34,987 nt of DNA from an uncultured Gammaproteobacteria bacterium (GCA_964370875.1 CAYJLM010000002.1:1-34987), one strand, 5' to 3'; shown: positions 5,085 through 29,012, numbered from the stretch's first letter. Notes: generated by a model from the sequence alone, not told the origin. Numbers and translations are program-made.

Positions 5085-5642
5085 CTAGCAACCTTTTTCA
5101 AAAAAGTGCAGAACGGTATTGATTTTCTCTTCAATCGTCAAAAGACCCGAATTGAGCGTAATGTGATAGCCGCTCGAATCGCGATAGTCGTAGTCGGATC
5201 CGTATAATTTTTTTGCAAGGTCTAGCTGGCGATTTTCACGTTCGTTGAGGAGCGCCATAATTTCTTCGAGCGATTTTCCGGCAATTTCTTTCTTATCTGT
5301 CTGCATGCCACGCTGTGCGCGGACTTCAAGCGGCGCGGTGATAAACACGCGCAAGACAGGCAATCCATCACCAATAATGCCATGCCACATGTCGCCGATG
5401 ACGTTTCCTTTTGCTAGAACATCATGAGCATATGTATCTGTTTCACGTTCTTCTTCAGGCGTGATTGAGCGAAGGTATTCCTCGAACGTCAGCTCGGCGT
5501 CTGGATATTTTTCTACCCATCGTTGCCTCAGCAGTCCACCGACATAAAAAACAGGCCAGCCAAGCTTTTCAGCGAGTTGGCGCGATGTTGTTGTTTTTCC
5601 CGATCCGGGAAGCCCGGAGAATAAAATGCCGTTAAAACGCAT
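5085..5642 (-). CDS. P-loop nucleotide kinase, cytidylate-kinase-like
   Basis: Walker A GLPGSGKTT eight residues after the internal ATG at 5642. The 46 codons upstream in the ORF track are the palindromic element, not coding sequence. Confidence 0.7.
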   Translation of the reverse strand: MRFNGILFSGLPGSGKTTTSRQLAEKLGWPVFYVGGLLRQRWVEKYPDAELTFEEYLRSITPEEERETDTYAHDVLAKGNVIGDMWHGIIGDGLPVLRVFITAPLEVRAQRGMQTDKKEIAGKSLEEIMALLNERENRQLDLAKKLYGSDYDYRDSSGYHITLNSGLLTIEEKINTVLHFFEKGC

Positions 5643-5673
5643 AAAGTGATTCGATTGTATTGATTTTGTGCCT

Positions 5674-5793
5674 AAGACAAACGTAGTTGAGTGCAATTCT
5701 AGGCGCCGGCGAGGATCGGAGTAAAACGTATACAGTATACGTTGTCGAGAACCGGAGCTGGTAACAACGAAATGCGCCAACTACGTTTGTCTT
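5674..5793 (-). repeat. palindromic structured element, subfamily 1, copy a
   Basis: 15-bp closing stem 5674-5688 / 5779-5793. Central hairpin aacgtata-cag-tatacgtt (5725-5743). The 90-nt core 5689-5778 aligns without gaps to 28908-28997 as reverse complement (73/90 identical). Confidence 0.85.
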
Positions 5794-7487
5794 TATGCTA
5801 GTATTTTTACCATATATGTGTCTTCAAGTCCATACCCAAGCTTCGCATAGTATTCGCGCACCCCTATGCCGGCAATGACCGCCATTTTGGTATATCCTGC
5901 ATCCTTGGCGATTATTTCAGCTCGCTCCATGAGCTTTCTCCCTAATCCCTTGTGTTGCGAGGCGCTGGAATCTTTTTCGTTAATAGTAACGAGCTGTCCG
6001 TACGTGTGTAGTTCTCGGATGAGCGCGGCACCACGGAGTTCTTCGAAATGGTCAACGATGGGATTATCTACGGAGGAGGGGAATCGCAGGCGCAGGAACG
6101 CAAACAAGACAGACTCATCCTCACTTTCGTAGCTCAAAAAATACTCAATTCCCCCCGATGCGCTATATGTCCTCTCCTTGTAATAAGGAGCACCTATATG
6201 CTGAGCATTAGACTCAAGAACGTGCCCAACCTCTCTGCAACGCAAGCACCGACATACGAGCCCATGCTCTTCCATGTATTCCCGCACGGTTTGCCGTAGG
6301 TTTGTCACCTTACTTCCGTGTGAAATTTCTTGCGACGGAAAATCTCGAATGATGCGTGCGATACGCATAGTGGGTGGCACGAGCGCTTTGATCTGGGCGA
6401 GAAGGGGAACAAGCTGTTCGGTGGTGTAGGGCGTATAGCGGCCATCGCGCACCCATTCCTCAAGCTCTGTTGTGGGCGTGACAATACAGGGATAGAGCTT
6501 AATCGTATCGGGCTGGAAATCGCTTTGGGAAAAAATACGCTGCGCATCGCGCACATCACTCTCCGGGGTCGCGCCGGGTAATCCCTGCATAAGATGATAG
6601 TCCACTTTGAGTCCCGCATCCTTCAGAAGGCGGGTCGCATAAATTGAAGCGCCCGTGAGGTGTCCGCGTTTGATGCGTTTTAGAATCGTGTCATCGGGTG
6701 ATTGCACCCCCAGCTCAACCCGCGTGACCCCCAGGTCGCGCAAGCGCTTGATTTCCTGAACGCTGATCCAGTCGGGTCGCGTTTCTATTGTCAGTCCGAT
6801 ACAGCGATGGACGGCTGTTTCATTGATGCTCTGCTGTTCAAAAAGTTTTTCACTCCGCCATTCGTTTTTTTCCGTACCTAAAAAACGACTGAACGGTGAG
6901 TCAGGAGAAGGGGGCGGCATATCGCGCGCGGGACCTCCGACATCGTTCATTGCGCGGAAACACTCAGCGATAAACCACTGCTGGTAGTCGACAGGGTAAG
7001 ACGACCATGTTCCACCCTTGATAATCAGTTCAATCTTGTCGGCAGGATGGCCGTTGCGTTCTAGGATTTCAATGCGCCGGCGTGTTTGGGTATACGGATC
7101 AAACTGTAATGTGAGCGCCCGTGCCGCTGCCGGTTCGGTCGCGATATAGCTTTTGGGCATGCGTTCCTCAGTGGGACAGTAGACGCATTTTCCCGGACAC
7201 GGATGAGGCATGGTTAGAAGCGTAACGATTGCCACACCGGATTTTGACCGGATTGGTTTTACGTGAAGCGCTGTTTCAAGCGCCTTATTTTTTGGAGTGG
7301 CGTTCTTGCTCCGCAGGGCGTTATAGGTGTCGCGGATATCGTTGTGCTGGAAGAGCCCCGTACTTTTTCCCTTTGCCGCCTTTTTTTTGAGTTGGTGCAG
7401 AAGGAGGGGGGTTATATTGTCAGAAAGGGCTAATTCGTGTATAATTGAATCAGGAGCAGGATTGGTGCTTATGCCTGTTTTTTGCAT
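5793..7487 (-). CDS. elp3: Elp3-family radical SAM / GNAT acetyltransferase
   Basis: Cys cluster CPGKCVYCP, radical-SAM barrel, and C-terminal GNAT motif QHKGLGRKLMERAE. ATG 7487 (MQKTGIS...) preferred, because the 42 upstream codons are element sequence. Confidence 0.8.
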   Translation of the reverse strand: MQKTGISTNPAPDSIIHELALSDNITPLLLHQLKKKAAKGKSTGLFQHNDIRDTYNALRSKNATPKNKALETALHVKPIRSKSGVAIVTLLTMPHPCPGKCVYCPTEERMPKSYIATEPAAARALTLQFDPYTQTRRRIEILERNGHPADKIELIIKGGTWSSYPVDYQQWFIAECFRAMNDVGGPARDMPPPSPDSPFSRFLGTEKNEWRSEKLFEQQSINETAVHRCIGLTIETRPDWISVQEIKRLRDLGVTRVELGVQSPDDTILKRIKRGHLTGASIYATRLLKDAGLKVDYHLMQGLPGATPESDVRDAQRIFSQSDFQPDTIKLYPCIVTPTTELEEWVRDGRYTPYTTEQLVPLLAQIKALVPPTMRIARIIRDFPSQEISHGSKVTNLRQTVREYMEEHGLVCRCLRCREVGHVLESNAQHIGAPYYKERTYSASGGIEYFLSYESEDESVLFAFLRLRFPSSVDNPIVDHFEELRGAALIRELHTYGQLVTINEKDSSASQHKGLGRKLMERAEIIAKDAGYTKMAVIAGIGVREYYAKLGYGLEDTYMVKILA

Positions 7488-7496
7488 AGTTTTTTG

Positions 7497-7630
7497 ATTT
7501 ACGAAACTTGTTATGTTCGGACATTTCTTCCTCGGGGCCGGATATTTTTCTGCTGAAAAATTCCTTAAACTCAGACCGTCGTCCTCCGTATGCCCCTGTG
7601 GAGAAACGTCCAAACATAAGTTTCGTAATT
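7497..7630 (+). repeat. palindromic structured element, subfamily 2, copy a
   Basis: Closing stem 7497-7509 / 7618-7630 plus 7513-7517 / 7613-7617. P2 tttcttc (7524-7530) / ggagaaa (7600-7606). The 68-nt core 7535-7602 is 64/68 identical to 18193-18260. Confidence 0.9.
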
Positions 7631-7643
7631 CCTAAGCAGATCC

Positions 7644-8513
7644 ATGAATCCTGAAACAGCAAAACACATACTGCAATTGACTCAGGATGGCTATGTGCGA
7701 ATAGCCAGATATTTTGATAAAACTCGCAATACAATCTGGGAGGATTTTAGCATTTTCAAGGCCTCTGTCAAAGATGGATCTCGTGTTTTGGATGTTGGAT
7801 GCGGGAATGGGCGACTGTATGCGGCACTGAAAGATAAGAATGTGATGTATGTCGGAGTCGATCAGAACCCGTACTTAATAGAGCAGGCGCAAGAGCGTTA
7901 TCCGCAAGCGAGGTTCATTACCGGAGACATTCTTTCCCTCGACACCATTTCCGGTATTGCCGGCGAGACATTCGATGTTATTTTTTCTGTCGCAGTTCTG
8001 TGCCATATCCCTTCAACGGAATTGCGTCAGCGTGTTCTAGTAGCCATGCGTTCATTGCTGGTTCGTGATGGTCTACTCATGATGCTGAATTGGAATCTGT
8101 GGCGTATTGCCTTCAAGCATAAAAGCATTTGGAAAAATCTTCATCAGCGGTTGACACTGAGTCCGCTGACATGGAAAGAGATGTATGCAGCCTCGGAGAG
8201 AGATATGGGGTTTCGCGATGTCATGACGTGGTGGGGCACGCATATCAATGGCACGCCGCTGTATTATCGTGCATTTTCTGTCGGAGAATTGCGTGCATTG
8301 TGCCGAGATGTCGGGTTTAGCGACATCTCGTGTTTTTATACGATGAAAGGTAAAAGGGCACACTGGTGGAACGGAAGAAATCTTGCGCTTATTACGCGCA
8401 ACACACTTGTATCTGTTCCTGTAAAGGAGCGAAAAAAGTCCGCAGTACCCTTGAATCAAATGTCTTACGCATCTATTCCAAAAATTGAGATTGGTGAAAA
8501 TAGCTCATCATGA
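7644..8513 (+). CDS. class I SAM-dependent methyltransferase
   Basis: Motif I VLDVGCGNGRL, followed by the usual acidic loop and motif II spacing. Confidence 0.8.
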   Translation: MNPETAKHILQLTQDGYVRIARYFDKTRNTIWEDFSIFKASVKDGSRVLDVGCGNGRLYAALKDKNVMYVGVDQNPYLIEQAQERYPQARFITGDILSLDTISGIAGETFDVIFSVAVLCHIPSTELRQRVLVAMRSLLVRDGLLMMLNWNLWRIAFKHKSIWKNLHQRLTLSPLTWKEMYAASERDMGFRDVMTWWGTHINGTPLYYRAFSVGELRALCRDVGFSDISCFYTMKGKRAHWWNGRNLALITRNTLVSVPVKERKKSAVPLNQMSYASIPKIEIGENSSS

Positions 8514-11347: not shown

Positions 11348-11421
11348 GTGTCATCCCGAACAACGTGAGGAATCTCGCCGCAGTAATATGTCCGCAGAAT
11401 GGGGGGTATCCATTTTTGCGG

Positions 11422-11497
11422 GAACAGGTAGAGACTCCTTTTTTGCAACAGGGCACACTTCGTTCAAAGGTTGCCAAAAAGGAATCTCCACCTGTTC
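11422..11497 (+). repeat. 76-nt near-perfect hairpin (H1)
   Basis: Stems 11422-11429 / 11490-11497, 11431-11443 / 11476-11488 (one C/A mismatch) and 11445-11449 / 11470-11474. 20-nt loop containing gcacacttcgttcaaag. Confidence 0.8.
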
Positions 11498-11525
11498 AGT
11501 CGTGCGAAACGTGAATAGTTCGTTG

Positions 11526-11603
11526 CAGGGCAGGGATGTCCTTTTTGCGGTGACTTTAACCGAAGGTGTGCATCGGGAGCCGCAAGGGGGCATCCCTGCC
11601 CTG
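11526..11603 (-). repeat. 78-nt hairpin (H2), inverted homologue of H1
   Basis: 13-bp perfect stem 11526-11538 / 11591-11603. An 11-bp stem 11540-11550 / 11580-11590 with three G:T pairs. The reverse complement of the apex, gcacaccttcggttaaag, matches the H1 loop. Confidence 0.8.
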
Positions 11604-11614
11604 GATGTCGAATC

Positions 11615-11693
11615 GTTGTCATTTTGTGGGTTTTAGGGTAGTATGTGTATCGTTGCACGCGTCGAGTAGGAGAATTTTGCAATGGATGACAAC
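11615..11693 (-). repeat. 79-nt hairpin (H3), degenerate subfamily-1-like element
   Basis: 8-bp closing stem gttgtcat (11615-11622) / atgacaac (11686-11693). On the minus strand, ctcctactcgac...aacgatacacatac resembles the subfamily-1 core ctccggtactcgacaacgtaca. Confidence 0.5.
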
Positions 11694-11893
11694 CACCGGT
11701 CGACCGCTAGAGTATGTCTTAGCGGTAAGGGCAAACAGGTGAAAATCCTGCAGTCCACGACCGAACAACAGTGGCAAGATTTCCGGCAACACGAAAAGGA
11801 AAGGGTGGCACAAAAGCCGTCAGAGAGGAGGGCAACGAGAAGAAATAGCTCGTTTTTTGCGCCAGGGCTGGTCTCGATTGATCGGCCCTGGGC
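11694..11893 (+). other. structured non-coding leader upstream of uvrA, unclassified
   Basis: Hairpins accgcta / tagcggt (11703-11726) and cagg-tgaaaat-cctg (11736-11750). Weak terminator-like aacgag-N9-ctcgtt followed by tttt (11834-11858). Stem ccagggc / gccctgg (11862-11891) ends 2 nt before the uvrA ATG. Confidence 0.4.
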
Positions 11894-17412: not shown

Positions 17413-18519
17413 ATGAATTTCTGGAAAAAGCTGAAAAAACCAATACGGTGCCTCGCGCCGATGGCAGATGTCACCGACGCGGCTTTTCGCCGTATTATTG
17501 CGAAATATGGGAAACCCGACGTCATGTGGACGGAATTTGTGTCTGTGGATGGTCTCTGTTCTATCGGACGCGAAAAGCTGCTGCCCGATCTTTGGTACAC
17601 ACAAGCCGAGCGACCTATTGTCGCGCAGATTTTCGGATGCAATCCTGAGAATTTCTATAAAGCCGCCCTCCTCATCAAAGAACTGGGATTTGACGGAATC
17701 GACATCAATATGGGGTGTCCGATGAAAAATATCGAACACCAGCACGCGGGAGCGACACTCATGAAGGATCCGCAGCTCGCCGTAAAGATTGTTCAGGAAA
17801 CAAAACGCGGCGCCGGCAAACTTCCCGTTTCAGTCAAAACGCGTCTTGGGTATAACAAGGTTATGATCGAAGAATGGATTTTGCCGCTGCTTGATGCGGA
17901 ACCTGCTGCATTGACGATCCATGCTCGTACGCGGAAAGAGATGTCAAAGGTTCCGGCGCACTGGGATATTCTCGGCGATGTTGTTGAAAAAATACACGCG
18001 CAGTATACGACCAGTAGAAACCGACCGATTATCATTGGCAACGGTGACGTAAAAGACATGGATGATGCGTATGATAAAGTAAAACAGTACGGCGTTGACG
18101 GAGTGATGCTGGGGCGGGCGATATTTGGGAACCCATGGTTGTTTGCGCATCCACCAATTGCGAAGCATTCCCCCTCGGGTACTTGTTCCTCAGGGCCGGA
18201 TATTTTTCTGCTGAAAAATTCCTTAAACTCAGGCCGTCGCCTTCCGTATGCCCCTGCGGACAAGAACCCGAGGGAGAGCTTCGCAATTCTCGGTACCCAT
18301 GTTCCGTCGCAAGAAGAAAAAATGTCTGTTCTGCTCGAACATACAAGTGTTTTTGACCAGCTCTTTGCCGGAATCAAAAACTTTGATATTATGAAAAAAC
18401 ATTATAAGGCATATGTATCCGGTTTTGACGGCGCCAAAGAGCTGCGCGTACAGCTTATGGCGTGCAAGACCGCGCAAGAAATTTCCAAAATTATTCATAA
18501 AGAATTTCCGTCACTATGA
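17413..18519 (+). CDS. dus: tRNA-dihydrouridine synthase carrying an in-frame element insertion of about 45 codons
   Basis: LAPMADVTDAAFR, DINMGCP, VSVKTRLG and GNGDV motifs. C-terminal helical domain KKHYKAYVSGFDGAKELRVQL. An extra segment follows GNPWLF. Confidence 0.9.
   Translation: MNFWKKLKKPIRCLAPMADVTDAAFRRIIAKYGKPDVMWTEFVSVDGLCSIGREKLLPDLWYTQAERPIVAQIFGCNPENFYKAALLIKELGFDGIDINMGCPMKNIEHQHAGATLMKDPQLAVKIVQETKRGAGKLPVSVKTRLGYNKVMIEEWILPLLDAEPAALTIHARTRKEMSKVPAHWDILGDVVEKIHAQYTTSRNRPIIIGNGDVKDMDDAYDKVKQYGVDGVMLGRAIFGNPWLFAHPPIAKHSPSGTCSSGPDIFLLKNSLNSGRRLPYAPADKNPRESFAILGTHVPSQEEKMSVLLEHTSVFDQLFAGIKNFDIMKKHYKAYVSGFDGAKELRVQLMACKTAQEISKIIHKEFPSL
18156..18288 (+). repeat. palindromic structured element, subfamily 2, copy b, inside dus
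   Basis: Arms 18156-18166 / 18278-18288 (11 bp) and 18172-18180 / 18266-18274 (9 bp). P2 cttgttc (18182-18188) / ggacaag (18258-18264). Core 18193-18260 is 64/68 identical to 7535-7602. Confidence 0.9.
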
Positions 18520-22597: not shown

Positions 22598-22742
22598 ATT
22601 TTTATGAAGAAAAGCAGTATAGGAGATTAATTTACGCCGGCAGGTACTGTACCGCCCTATCGTAGCATTAGCATTTTTGAAAACATATTATCGATTGGCG
22701 AATAAACATAATAAACCGCAGTAAAATAAATTTCTCAATGAT

Positions 22743-23426
22743 ATGAGCGGAGAAACACCATCAAGAAAACCATCGTTTGAAGAATATGCTGTATCTCCGG
22801 AGGGCGGTGCAGTGAGAAAGCTTGCCGGAGATCTTTCGGATTTATATTTTTCACAACTCATGAATAAAGAAAAAGGACGGGCAAACCCACCTGAGGAGCC
22901 GGCAGACCTAGTGTCGGGTGGAAGTACAACTGGACTTGACGCCCTTTTGGCACTGTATGATGAGCCGTCCTCGATCCGTGCAGATGAGGCAACGGCACTT
23001 GCTCGTCTTGATGAACTAGAGGATTCGTTAAAGAGGGGTACTATGCCGAAACAGTCATTCGGTGAGATCGGGGCTGACCACCCATCAAAGACATGGGCTG
23101 AATTTCGTGAAAGAGTGGCTCGCAACCACGATCTTGCAGGAAACTCTCGTTCGGCGCTCATGTCGCTTGCAGACTATTTGCAGTCGCGCATTGCGCTTCA
23201 CACGACAACAGTGACCGATATACGAGATCTTGCGAGTAAGCGTACACTCCCCACCATCACGGAAGACCCCTTGACGGCATTTCTTTTTATCGATCTCTAT
23301 GCACATGAACATAAGGGTGCGCAGGAATTACTTCACGAACATTTGACGAGAATCGTGACGAATATTGGAATTTTATGGAAGACATTGGCGTCTTGGATTC
23401 TGGTGATGATACTCATCAGGTTTTGA
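22743..23426 (+). CDS. hypothetical protein, 227 aa, C-terminal hydrophobic tail
   Basis: Longest ORF in the interval; no motif recognised. Confidence 0.55.
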   Translation: MSGETPSRKPSFEEYAVSPEGGAVRKLAGDLSDLYFSQLMNKEKGRANPPEEPADLVSGGSTTGLDALLALYDEPSSIRADEATALARLDELEDSLKRGTMPKQSFGEIGADHPSKTWAEFRERVARNHDLAGNSRSALMSLADYLQSRIALHTTTVTDIRDLASKRTLPTITEDPLTAFLFIDLYAHEHKGAQELLHEHLTRIVTNIGILWKTLASWILVMILIRF

Positions 23427-23477: not shown

Positions 23478-24392
23478 ATGGGCGGAGCCGAAGGTTTTTT
23501 TGGTGGTTTATTCGGGCGATTTGGTGGTGACCCGGAGCAAAAAAAGGCAAAATTTGAGTCTAATCTTTTTAAAGATGGTGTTTTTTCTTTTAGCGAAGAC
23601 AGTGTTCGTGCCGAGGCGAAAAAGTGGATATCTTCGCGGACAGAATGGTATCGAGATCCCAACGCCGCGAACGATATGGATTTGTCAGCGTCTCTGCTCT
23701 TTCATGAGCGCAATGAGCATGGTACAGAGCTGTTGTGGCAGAGGCGATTCAGCAACTGTCTCCCCGCTCCCTGGCTTAATGCGGAAGAGATTACAAATAC
23801 TCTTCAAGACGCACGCGAGGGGGGTATAACGCTCAGTAAGACGCTTATCGATGCGGCGGCAACTCATCCCGATCAGATTGTTGCCAGGGTTGTGGGTACT
23901 ACACAACGTCTAACCATCCAACAGCTCGCATGGGTGTTGACGCACCCTGCTCTAATAACAGAGCTGGACGGTAGTGAGAGTGAGTATTCTGAAATTTATA
24001 AAATTCTTGCCGCACAAAAAAAGTTTGGTATGACTGCCCTGGAACTGAAGCAAGCGCAGGACATCGCAAAAAAGCTACATGGGGAATTTTATGGAGAGCA
24101 CGTCCAAGAAGAAATTAGCGTATCGAAAGAAGGTATTAAGATAGAACGTAGCGAAAAAACAGAAGAAGAACTGACACTGCACGGCGTGGTCCATGTGGGT
24201 GGCGGTGCTTCGGCAAAAGAGCATATTTTTTTATGGGACGTGCATGAATATTATAAACCCGGCCTCAATGTAGATGTGCGCTTCTATTTGACAAGCGTGG
24301 ATCCGGAAAGCAAAATATTTTTAGCCAAAAACGAAGCAAAGCTGAAGCTGCTTTTGATTAAGCATCTGAGCGGGCTGGATAAAAAAGAATAA
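23478..24392 (+). CDS. hypothetical protein, 304 aa, Gly/Phe-rich N-terminus
   Basis: Longest ORF in the interval; no motif recognised. Confidence 0.55.
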   Translation: MGGAEGFFGGLFGRFGGDPEQKKAKFESNLFKDGVFSFSEDSVRAEAKKWISSRTEWYRDPNAANDMDLSASLLFHERNEHGTELLWQRRFSNCLPAPWLNAEEITNTLQDAREGGITLSKTLIDAAATHPDQIVARVVGTTQRLTIQQLAWVLTHPALITELDGSESEYSEIYKILAAQKKFGMTALELKQAQDIAKKLHGEFYGEHVQEEISVSKEGIKIERSEKTEEELTLHGVVHVGGGASAKEHIFLWDVHEYYKPGLNVDVRFYLTSVDPESKIFLAKNEAKLKLLLIKHLSGLDKKE

Positions 24393-28627: not shown

Positions 28628-28891
<264 letters not shown>

Positions 28892-28892
28892 T

Positions 28893-29012
28893 ATGACTTC
28901 CGCGTTTGGCACATTTCTTCGTTGCCAACTCCGGTACTCGACAACGTACATTGTGTACGCCTTACTCCGTTCCTCATTGGCGCCTAGAACTGCGCTCAAA
29001 CGCAAAAGTCAT
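28893..29012 (+). repeat. palindromic structured element, subfamily 1, copy b
   Basis: 15-bp closing stem 28893-28907 / 28998-29012 (two C/A mismatches on plus, equal to G:U on minus). Central hairpin cgtaca-ttg-tgtacg (28945-28959). Core 28908-28997 is 73/90 identical to the reverse complement of 5689-5778. Confidence 0.85.

Follow-up and report, generated by a model that had tools for sequence, protein, structure and literature searches.

Introduction

Genomes of CPR bacteria (Patescibacteria) are about 1 Mb in size and tightly packed, and they are usually called repeat-poor; the bacteria themselves are thought to be nearly free of mobile DNA. Elsewhere, several kinds of short hairpin-forming elements are known. 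attC sites are imperfect palindromes of 57-141 nt that lie directly 3' of an ORF in a fixed orientation. Their bottom strand is the one that is folded and active, with extra-helical bases setting the choice of strand, and their ends are conserved (R''/R' boxes, RYYYAAC/GTTRRRY) while the centre is variable. In 23S rRNA, intervening sequences (IVSs) occur sporadically as inserted hairpins of about 100-150 nt in apical loops; they are found only in rRNA helices, from which RNase III removes them. ERIC and Correia elements have conserved terminal inverted repeats, are flanked by TA target duplications and occur in both orientations. The orientation of REPs is independent of transcription, and a REPIN doublet folds to a hairpin of about 100 nt. 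Rickettsia palindromic elements (RPEs) occur in RNA genes, among other places.

The RPEs, repeated palindromes of about 100-150 bp, populate a reduced genome with several unrelated families and have both intergenic insertions and in-frame insertions into protein genes (PMC10969869); they are reported to end in a CGTC tag (PMC3733652). ERIC/IRU and Correia-type MITEs, imperfect palindromes of about 127-150 bp, lie in transcribed intergenic regions beside coding sequences and are co-transcribed, giving long RNA hairpins that are able to alter mRNA stability (PMC3733652). Most REPs lie 3' of coding regions, in spacers of unidirectional or convergent gene pairs. Recognised in the form of ssDNA hairpins, they make no target duplication, and some copies are intragenic (PMC3733652). 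In CPR bacteria, a study of circularised genomes reported "large extensions of helices" in RNase P RNA (PMC8172020).

Here we describe S2, a hairpin-repeat family of Uhrbacteria-like (CPR) genomes that has no Rfam match and was previously undescribed. Two copies lie in the window, by which we mean the whole stretch of DNA analysed (34,987 nt; all positions without a locus name refer to it). Judged by comparison with the systems above, S2 appears to work in the manner of RPEs and of ERIC- or REP-type repeats, and it fails membership of the classical MITEs, of REP/REPIN and of attC sites. We think it likely that S2 elements are non-autonomous palindromic repeats of about 120 nt that have spread within and between Uhrbacteria-like CPR genomes by way of a single-stranded hairpin.

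Results

The window holds two complete copies of one hairpin element

S2-A (5674-5793, minus strand) and S2-B (28893-29012, plus strand) are both complete 120-nt hairpin elements, scoring 142 bits (E 1e-27) and 135 bits (E 4e-26), respectively, with the covariance model described below. S2-A shares its first base with the TAA that ends an Elp3-like radical-SAM/GNAT gene (5793-7487, minus), and 30 nt separate its end from the ATG (about 5643) of a cytidylate-kinase-like gene, which is on the minus strand too. S2-B starts 1 nt past atpE (28637-28891, stop codon TAG), with the atpF start codon (ATG, 29040) following 27 nt beyond its end. Both are placed at the stop of the upstream gene, and they therefore have the same orientation relative to it. 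Homologues of the window's Dus, UvrB and AtpF proteins carry the names Candidatus Uhrbacteria or Patescibacteria. The window itself forms the final 35 kb of a 193.7-kb metagenomic contig. As a separate observation, the start regions of atpF, the kinase-like gene and a methyltransferase gene have no obvious Shine-Dalgarno sequence.

The two copies are 81% identical to each other. An earlier note on this DNA, made from the window alone, had described a gap-free 90-nt core shared by the two loci, and the identity it gave is reproduced: the reverse complement of 5689-5778 matches 28908-28997 at 73 of 90 positions with no gap, and a repeat search pairs 5687-5780 with 28906-28999 (94 nt, 82%). The note had also held that both loci form a 15-bp closing stem although their arms agree at only 8 of 15 positions. 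Indeed, the 5' arms are identical at 8/15 positions and the 3' arms at 7/15, yet the closing stem has 15 Watson-Crick pairs out of 15 in S2-A and 13 plus two C·A oppositions in S2-B. The change that it saw in the central hairpin, cgtata/tatacg against cgtaca/tgtacg, is present as well. Compared with dinucleotide shuffles, the fold energies of S2-A and S2-B on both strands have z scores of -5.0 to -7.1 (0/200 shuffles equal), and the window has two occurrences of the 19-base core motif where 0.01 are expected. A search with Rfam 15 gave no match at the gathering score over the whole window, and none with E <= 10 on either strand of 5500-7800.

Each S2 copy is one long imperfect hairpin, made up of a variable closing stem of 15-16 bp, an extra-helical base, three short covarying helices, two internal loops of invariant sequence and a variable apical hairpin. 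In S2-B, the variable closing stem P1 pairs 28893-28908 with 28997-29012 on the plus strand, and its two C·A mismatches on that strand are G·U on the opposite strand. The base before the P1 3' arm, 28996, is extra-helical and conserved, being T on the sense strand and A on the antisense strand. P2 (GCACATTTC, 28909-28917, pairing with 28987-28995) is the helix in which C·A and A·C are conserved, at alignment columns 34:126 and 35:125, and in P3 (28924-28928 with 28977-28981) all 5 pairs covary across the S2 family. The conserved core (28929-28976) is composed of CTCCGGTRCTCGAC, the variable hairpin P5 (28943-28961) and CTTACTCCGYTCCTC. Within this core, P4 (28933-28937 with 28969-28973) includes an R:Y pair that covaries (GC 12, AU 9, UA 2). 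The equivalent of 28933-28973 in S2-A, comprising P4, P5 and P4 again, is 5713-5753 on the minus strand.

S2 is a family of 27 copies whose hairpin is under selection

Pattern scans and a covariance model together yielded 27 distinct copies of S2 in Uhrbacteria-like CPR genomes and metagenomes. A strict pattern of the 19-base core, scanned over 185,579 species genomes, returned one true match and six matches at chance level; the true match is a tandem pair of copies within the 23S-5S spacer of Candidatus Uhrbacteria RIFCSPHIGHO2_02_FULL_53_13. A degenerate core pattern gave 28 metagenomic loci, corresponding to about 22 distinct copies. The covariance model (R1), which was built on an alignment of 24 S2 copies (A3), re-found 23 of the 24, with the first tandem copy of L003 unlisted, and added three extra copies.

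Copies are typically 116-127 nt long, and shorter ones measure 97-105 nt. Their common layout runs from a variable arm through GGCACATTTCGTTGTTGCCAG, CTCCGGTRCTCGAC, a variable hairpin, CTTACTCCGYTCCTC and CTGGCGCCTAGAACTGCACTC to the complementary arm. Along the alignment, variation is greatest at the termini and the centre is invariant; the core is better conserved than host proteins, a conservation that is partly imposed by retrieval because the metagenome pattern fixed 21 core bases. The closing arms share a loose family consensus (AGGAYTTACGC.../...GCGTAARTCCT) and are therefore homologous but fast-evolving, not unrelated. A reading of S2 as a small ORF on the sense strand, such as a type I toxin, was rejected: there is no conserved start codon, and the openness of reading frames mirrors pyrimidine richness only.

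RNAalifold predicted 28 pairs, 24 of which have double compensatory changes. When this structure was completed by hand to 40 pairs, double compensatory changes were present in 36 of them across the 24 aligned copies, and 84.9% of the cells were paired, against 63.4% in shuffles. None of 500 shuffles matched any of the observed covariation measures, and sliding the partners by 1-3 columns lowered pairing to 29-46%. Covariation extends even into the "conserved" core, where columns 61:99 are GC in 12 copies, AU in 9 and UA in 2. The S2 hairpin is thus under strong selection, and the view in the earlier note that both window loci belong to one structured family with covarying stems holds for the larger set of copies.

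Copies follow stop codons and point with host transcription

S2 is dispersed over unrelated genes and stable-RNA loci, and its copies point in the direction of host transcription: all 20 orientable copies, out of 27, have the orientation of the host transcript. Fifteen copies start 0-7 nt past the stop codon of a same-strand ORF or overlap the stop. The upstream genes, at least 15 in number, differ from one another and include those for GAPDH, L7/L12, atpE (twice, in distant hosts), atpH and Elp3. Three of the post-stop copies are followed by a rho-independent terminator, and these three therefore lie in a 3' UTR. Two copies share one 23S-5S spacer, one lies between tRNA genes, and two are located inside the RNase P RNA gene (L032:423-950, L008:1-325), in the sense of that RNA. 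The RNase P RNA extension that holds the S2-like element measures about 170 nt and lies at model position 136/137, where a peripheral hairpin has its apical loop.

S2-like copies also fill the atpE-atpF and atpH-atpA spacers of L022 (139-261 and 1222-1343). The AtpF protein of this host is only 27% identical to that of the window, and S2 is therefore conserved better than the proteins of its hosts. Its presence after atpE in so distant a host means that the position is recurrent, having been hit, or kept, more than once.

Orientation directed by replication was considered and rejected. GC skew is positive over the whole window, although its two S2 copies occupy different strands of this single replichore. 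The negative-skew strand also carries the copy of L029 and that of the locus recovered twice as L020 and L033.

These settings would suit a cis-acting RNA module of the host, a rod-like stem-loop behind highly expressed cistrons and between stable RNAs, working in the sense transcript either by protecting upstream RNA against 3' exonucleases or as an endonuclease processing site that uncouples cistrons, and REP, ERIC and Correia elements act in this way in proteobacterial mRNAs. In its favour, all 20 orientable copies are co-transcribed with their neighbours, and copies start at 0-7 nt from the stops of atpE, rplL, gap, atpH and others. The three copies between a stop codon and a rho-independent terminator, the copies in places where processing is needed (the 23S-5S spacer and the tRNA cluster), the recurrence of the atpE-atpF position in a distant lineage and the strong conservation of the core sequence all point the same way. 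The absence of the element from the same operons of close relatives, and the strand on which the fold is selected, both of which are described below, argue against it.

Copies were gained or lost between close relatives

Synteny with relatives of the window is conserved, so that sites can be compared directly. The atpE-atpF spacer is 30 nt long in L041 and L042 (AtpF 76% identical) and 10 nt long in L043 and L045 (67%), and in all of these the S2-B site is empty. In L040 (AtpF 84%), the spacer is filled by an S2-like 3' half, the contig beginning inside the element. When the window is compared with L041, the insertion point falls immediately after TAGt, on the side of the old spacer nearest the stop codon, and no target sequence is duplicated around S2-B: TAGt is followed by S2-B and then by cagcg in the window, whereas the empty L041 site reads TAGttaaaa. 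No flanking repeats were found around 24 copies, and the empty L041 site holds no trace of a closing arm. The idea that closing stems derive from the target site, or from a terminator hairpin that was already there, was rejected on the ground that empty sites hold no such trace.

The Elp3-kinase spacer gives a similar picture. In L037 (UvrB 86% identical) it is 23 nt long and S2-A is absent, and in L036 (UvrB 94%) it holds a different hairpin element, 135 nt long and of the S3 type described below; no S2 was found in about 75 kb from these relatives. Copies were thus gained or lost between close relatives, and this presence and absence at syntenic sites, together with the unrelated genes beside which the copies lie, means that S2 is dispersed and mobile. 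Repeats and palindromes are prone to cause contig breaks, and three contigs of the window species (L049, L053 and L054) as well as that of the close relative L040 break inside S2-B. In metagenome-derived CPR genomes, hairpin elements of this kind are one cause of broken assemblies.

The strand opposite the host transcript is the one selected to fold

The strand on which the fold is selected is the complement of host transcripts. On the gene-sense strand, the helices contain 79 A·C or C·A oppositions against 21 G·U or U·G, in tallies whose cells are not phylogenetically independent, and these counts translate into 91% pairing for the antisense strand as against 85% for the sense strand. In the outer arms, taken as the outer 26 nt per arm and counted copy by copy with no multiple alignment involved, the sense strand has 45 A·C against 8 G·U (p = 2e-7 on the assumption of independent cells, which holds only in part). 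As RNA, the antisense strand is the more stable one in 26 of the 27 copies, by a mean of 10.4 kcal/mol (Wilcoxon p = 6e-6), and the antisense strand as ssDNA is likewise more stable in the four copies tested with DNA parameters. Even in the RNase P RNA copy, the A·C oppositions are on the RNA strand. The antisense strand has a conserved single bulged A between P1 and P2, and its two internal loops, both invariant, place GA opposite GA, an arrangement that could allow tandem sheared pairs; read on the sense strand, these loops are pyrimidine-rich.

The earlier note had reported that the non-Watson-Crick positions of S2-B are C/A on the gene-sense strand, had taken this as a hint that the folded strand is antisense to the host operon, and had proposed a tally of G:U against A/C per strand over many copies. 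The transition-type mismatches of S2-B are C·A or A·C on the gene-sense strand, and the tally over the family extends this excess to both the full helices and the outer arms; the RNA and DNA fold energies agree with the hint. With more copies, neither did the asymmetry disappear nor did the stems fall to the level of shuffled controls, the two outcomes that the note had named together as counting against its reading.

A mutational origin of the A·C excess was considered and rejected. At 4-fold degenerate sites, the plus strand is rich in G and T regardless of gene orientation, with a GC skew over all window genes of +0.08 for plus-strand genes and -0.13 for minus-strand genes; compositional asymmetry therefore tracks replication and not transcription. 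Such a bias would yield G·T on the sense strand of plus-strand genes. S2 is a clean and testable case of structural selection on the strand opposite to the one transcribed.

This asymmetry bears on two of the rival explanations. We consider the cis-acting RNA module unlikely, in that selection acts on the other strand, leaving a sense RNA with 79 A·C against 21 G·U and a fold weaker by about 10 kcal/mol, and that A·C lies on the RNA strand in the RNase P RNA copy as well. Close relatives keep the same operons without the element, and related hairpin families occur within coding sequence and in a gap separating divergent start codons. Alternatively, each S2 copy could be a small antisense RNA gene directed against its host operon, acting on the 3' end of the upstream mRNA or in trans, and if this is what the asymmetry reflects, S2 would be a widespread regulatory RNA. 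The antisense strand does have hallmarks of a structured RNA, namely conserved G·U pairs, a bulged A, loops capable of tandem G·A pairs and high stability. Yet the flanks are unconserved between copies, and no promoter- or terminator-like antisense signal is present at either window copy. Because the hairpin fills the whole element, it leaves no room for a promoter, which would have to fall in the coding start of the next gene, 14-40 nt away. The copies in RNase P RNA and in rRNA spacers would require antisense transcription through essential RNA genes, and there is no match in Rfam. We therefore regard an antisense RNA gene as improbable.

S2 shares features with several described repeat types

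The likeness to RPEs concerns the way of working only, with no sequence relationship and with hosts of another phylum: as in RPEs, there is an in-frame insertion (of the sister family S1, in Dus), and S2 itself occurs in the RNase P RNA of other loci. S2 differs in that its copies follow stop codons, with none seen inside ORFs, and in having no conserved terminal tag. We know of no partner transposase for either RPEs or S2, and to our knowledge neither co-orientation with transcription nor a fold bias towards the antisense strand has been described for RPEs. Like ERIC and Correia elements, S2 is an imperfect palindrome in transcribed spacers next to genes, but its termini vary and its core is conserved, it shows no target duplication, and its orientation is always the same (20/20). 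A REP unit measures 20-40 nt and has a GTAG or CGTC tag at one end, whereas S2 is one 120-nt unit; neither tag is conserved at the ends of the S2 alignment (a GTAG in the S2-A stem is there by chance), and no RAYT is annotated in the 35 kb of the source genome or in the short flanks of the other loci.

With classical MITEs, S2 has in common its size (120 nt), its non-coding nature, its copy number (27, two of them in the 35-kb window) and its presence/absence polymorphism, but it has no conserved terminal inverted repeats, no parent IS in any of the collections searched and no target-site duplication. The RNase P extension of L032, which includes an S2-like element, recalls both IVSs and the extended helices of CPR RNase P RNA, but unlike IVSs, S2 lies mainly in mRNA spacers.

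A further parallel to consider is with attC sites. If S2 copies were attC-like single-stranded recombination sites, a recombinase would read the folded bottom strand, and the upstream genes would be movable cassettes. In keeping with this, the elements measure about 120 nt, lie directly after a stop codon in fixed orientation to the upstream ORF, fold better on the bottom strand, and have a conserved extra-helical base between P1 and P2. However, the S2 ends (AGGAC.../...GTCCT) are unlike R''/R' boxes and are the most variable part of the element, and its invariant centre is the reverse of the attC arrangement. In place of cassettes, S2 is flanked by housekeeping genes (the atp operon, Elp3, uvr), in synteny with relatives that lack the element, and by stable RNAs, with copies inside RNase P RNA and rRNA spacers. 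No cassette arrays and no annotated integrase were found near S2 in the window region or in the loci of relatives. On this comparison, we hold the attC-like reading to be very improbable indeed. It and the two RNA-based readings are not exclusive of mobility, each being compatible with a selfish origin followed by exaptation.

How S2 may spread

The dispersal of S2, its gain and loss, its co-occurrence with hairpin families that insert in frame and its presence in very distant hosts identify it as a mobile non-autonomous repeat. Propagation would proceed via a single-stranded hairpin intermediate of the bottom strand, most simply ssDNA, handled by a structure-specific enzyme of the HUH or tyrosine-transposase kind; such handling would account for the lack of both target-site duplications and conserved termini. 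The combination of a conserved core, a free closing stem, no target duplication and selection on the fold of one strand suggests that a single strand is recognised in a structure-specific manner.

Insertions may survive only where a rod-like hairpin is harmless, that is, after stop codons, in rRNA and tRNA spacers and in apical loops of RNase P RNA. The post-stop position would then reflect survivorship, because ancestral spacers are 10-30 nt long and the last 20 nt or so are needed for the next initiation region, leaving the stretch beside the stop as the one harmless site. A filter on orientation may act in addition, by which the host RNA must carry the weaker-folding, pyrimidine-rich strand that is free of Shine-Dalgarno-like sequences: an inverted copy in an mRNA would form a long, near-perfect duplex and present Shine-Dalgarno-like GGAG/GAGGA loops against the terminating ribosome. 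Co-orientation with transcription is either this second filter or a property of the insertion mechanism. Side effects on operon mRNAs, such as 3' protection or the uncoupling of cistrons, are possible.

Several observations speak against spread as a mobile repeat. No transposase, RAYT-like gene or reverse transcriptase is annotated in the 35-kb window region or in the short flanks of the copies, and neither the loci nor viral contigs nor phage and plasmid collections yielded a parent IS. Viral contigs gave no match to the S2, S1 or S3 cores, and phage and plasmid collections gave none to S2. Near-identical copies within one genome were not seen; in the 35 kb covered of the source genome, the two S2 elements share 81% identity. 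Conservation is lowest at the termini, contrary to classical MITEs, and the conservation of the core together with the recurrent atpE-atpF position could indicate a host function. Finally, known ssDNA transposition follows replication and does not predict co-orientation with transcription.

A more far-reaching version of the mobile-repeat reading, which we put forward only tentatively and think rather doubtful, is that S2, with or without the other hairpin families, is a new structure-specific mobile element of CPR bacteria, in which the core is recognised, any closing stem is accepted, the element moves as a single-stranded hairpin of the antisense strand, and integration is directed by transcription without target duplication, at ORF ends, in rRNA/tRNA spacers and within RNase P RNA. 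If this were true, an HUH-like, reverse-transcriptase-based or RNA-guided mobilising system would be implied, and if the strand asymmetry reflects a transposition intermediate, the mechanism of mobilisation would be an undescribed one.

Other hairpin families lie in the same window

Across its 35 kb, the window has at least six hairpin insertions belonging to four or more families, and several of them are absent from relatives whose UvrB is 94% identical. Those of families S1 and S4 are demonstrably recent. In 6 of 7 window hairpin elements, the strand antisense to the flanking genes folds better. Such elements remodel operon spacers; one splits an overlapping stop and start, and one lengthens a tRNA-modifying enzyme by 44 residues. 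They are a concrete source for puzzling "extra" segments in CPR proteins and stable RNAs.

S1 elements are about 135 nt long and occur at 7495-7632 and 18156-18288 in the window, and at L033:3854-3990 and L023:4505-4634, two other loci that also have S2. Three genomes share a 45-nt core without any change, and covariation is seen in the stems. The copy at 7495-7632 is a recent insertion: it separates two divergent start codons, and three relatives have 12-23 nt between these codons. The copy at 18156-18288 adds 44 in-frame, stop-free codons to the linker of a Dus tRNA-dihydrouridine synthase, at a site where close homologues have no insert at all. In L033, the S1 copy is antisense to the flanking genes, so the orientation of S1 is not strict. 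The earlier note had proposed that S2 and the 7497-7630 subfamily belong to one superfamily, a proposal that finds no statistical support: the S2 model scores 9-11.5 bits on S1 (the 7497 and 18175 elements; E 2.8-9.8), which is the level of generic hairpins, and local alignment of S1 to the S2 consensus is no better than that of shuffles (p = 0.56 and 0.98). The motif acatttc is the sole alignable block common to the two, and homology is thus undetectable by either method.

A 174-nt palindrome (TTGAGTATGTAGAAAA...TTTTTTACATACTCAA) at 2178-2351 lies 5 nt before the overlapping xseA stop and xseB start (CACTATGA). In L036 and L037, which are without the palindrome, the overlap is intact. The insertion gives xseA a new TAG stop and made no target duplication, and its strand antisense to the genes folds better by 12.7 kcal/mol. 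The uvrB-uvrA spacer (11348-11893), unusually long at 546 nt, contains a hairpin of 76 nt at 11422-11497 and, at 11526-11603, an element of a further family, S3. Relatives (L036:4602-4740, L038:6700-6746) have the S3 core, GGTGACTTTARCCGAAGGTGTGCAKCGGGAGCC, as well, enclosed by wholly different closing stems, and the L036 element sits at the site that corresponds to S2-A in the window.

Some further features were seen in passing. The inverted-repeat pairs at 24098-24243 and 22646-22813 have arms of 13-20 nt spaced 106-142 nt apart, one of them inside the ORF at 23478-24392; they may be due to chance, since the fetched loci contain no related copies. Among CPR Dus homologues, many have unrelated inserts of 10-80 residues at one linker, between GNPWLF and EEKL.V..EH (alignment A1, columns about 297-385). 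Several of these resemble translated repeats, such as SGLRPDSARFG in three homologues, and the closest relative (L039) has an insert at this linker that differs from that of the window. The Uhrbacteria 23S rRNA gene (L003:4963-5146, 5403-5861) has a group I intron, with a LAGLIDADG-type ORF downstream.
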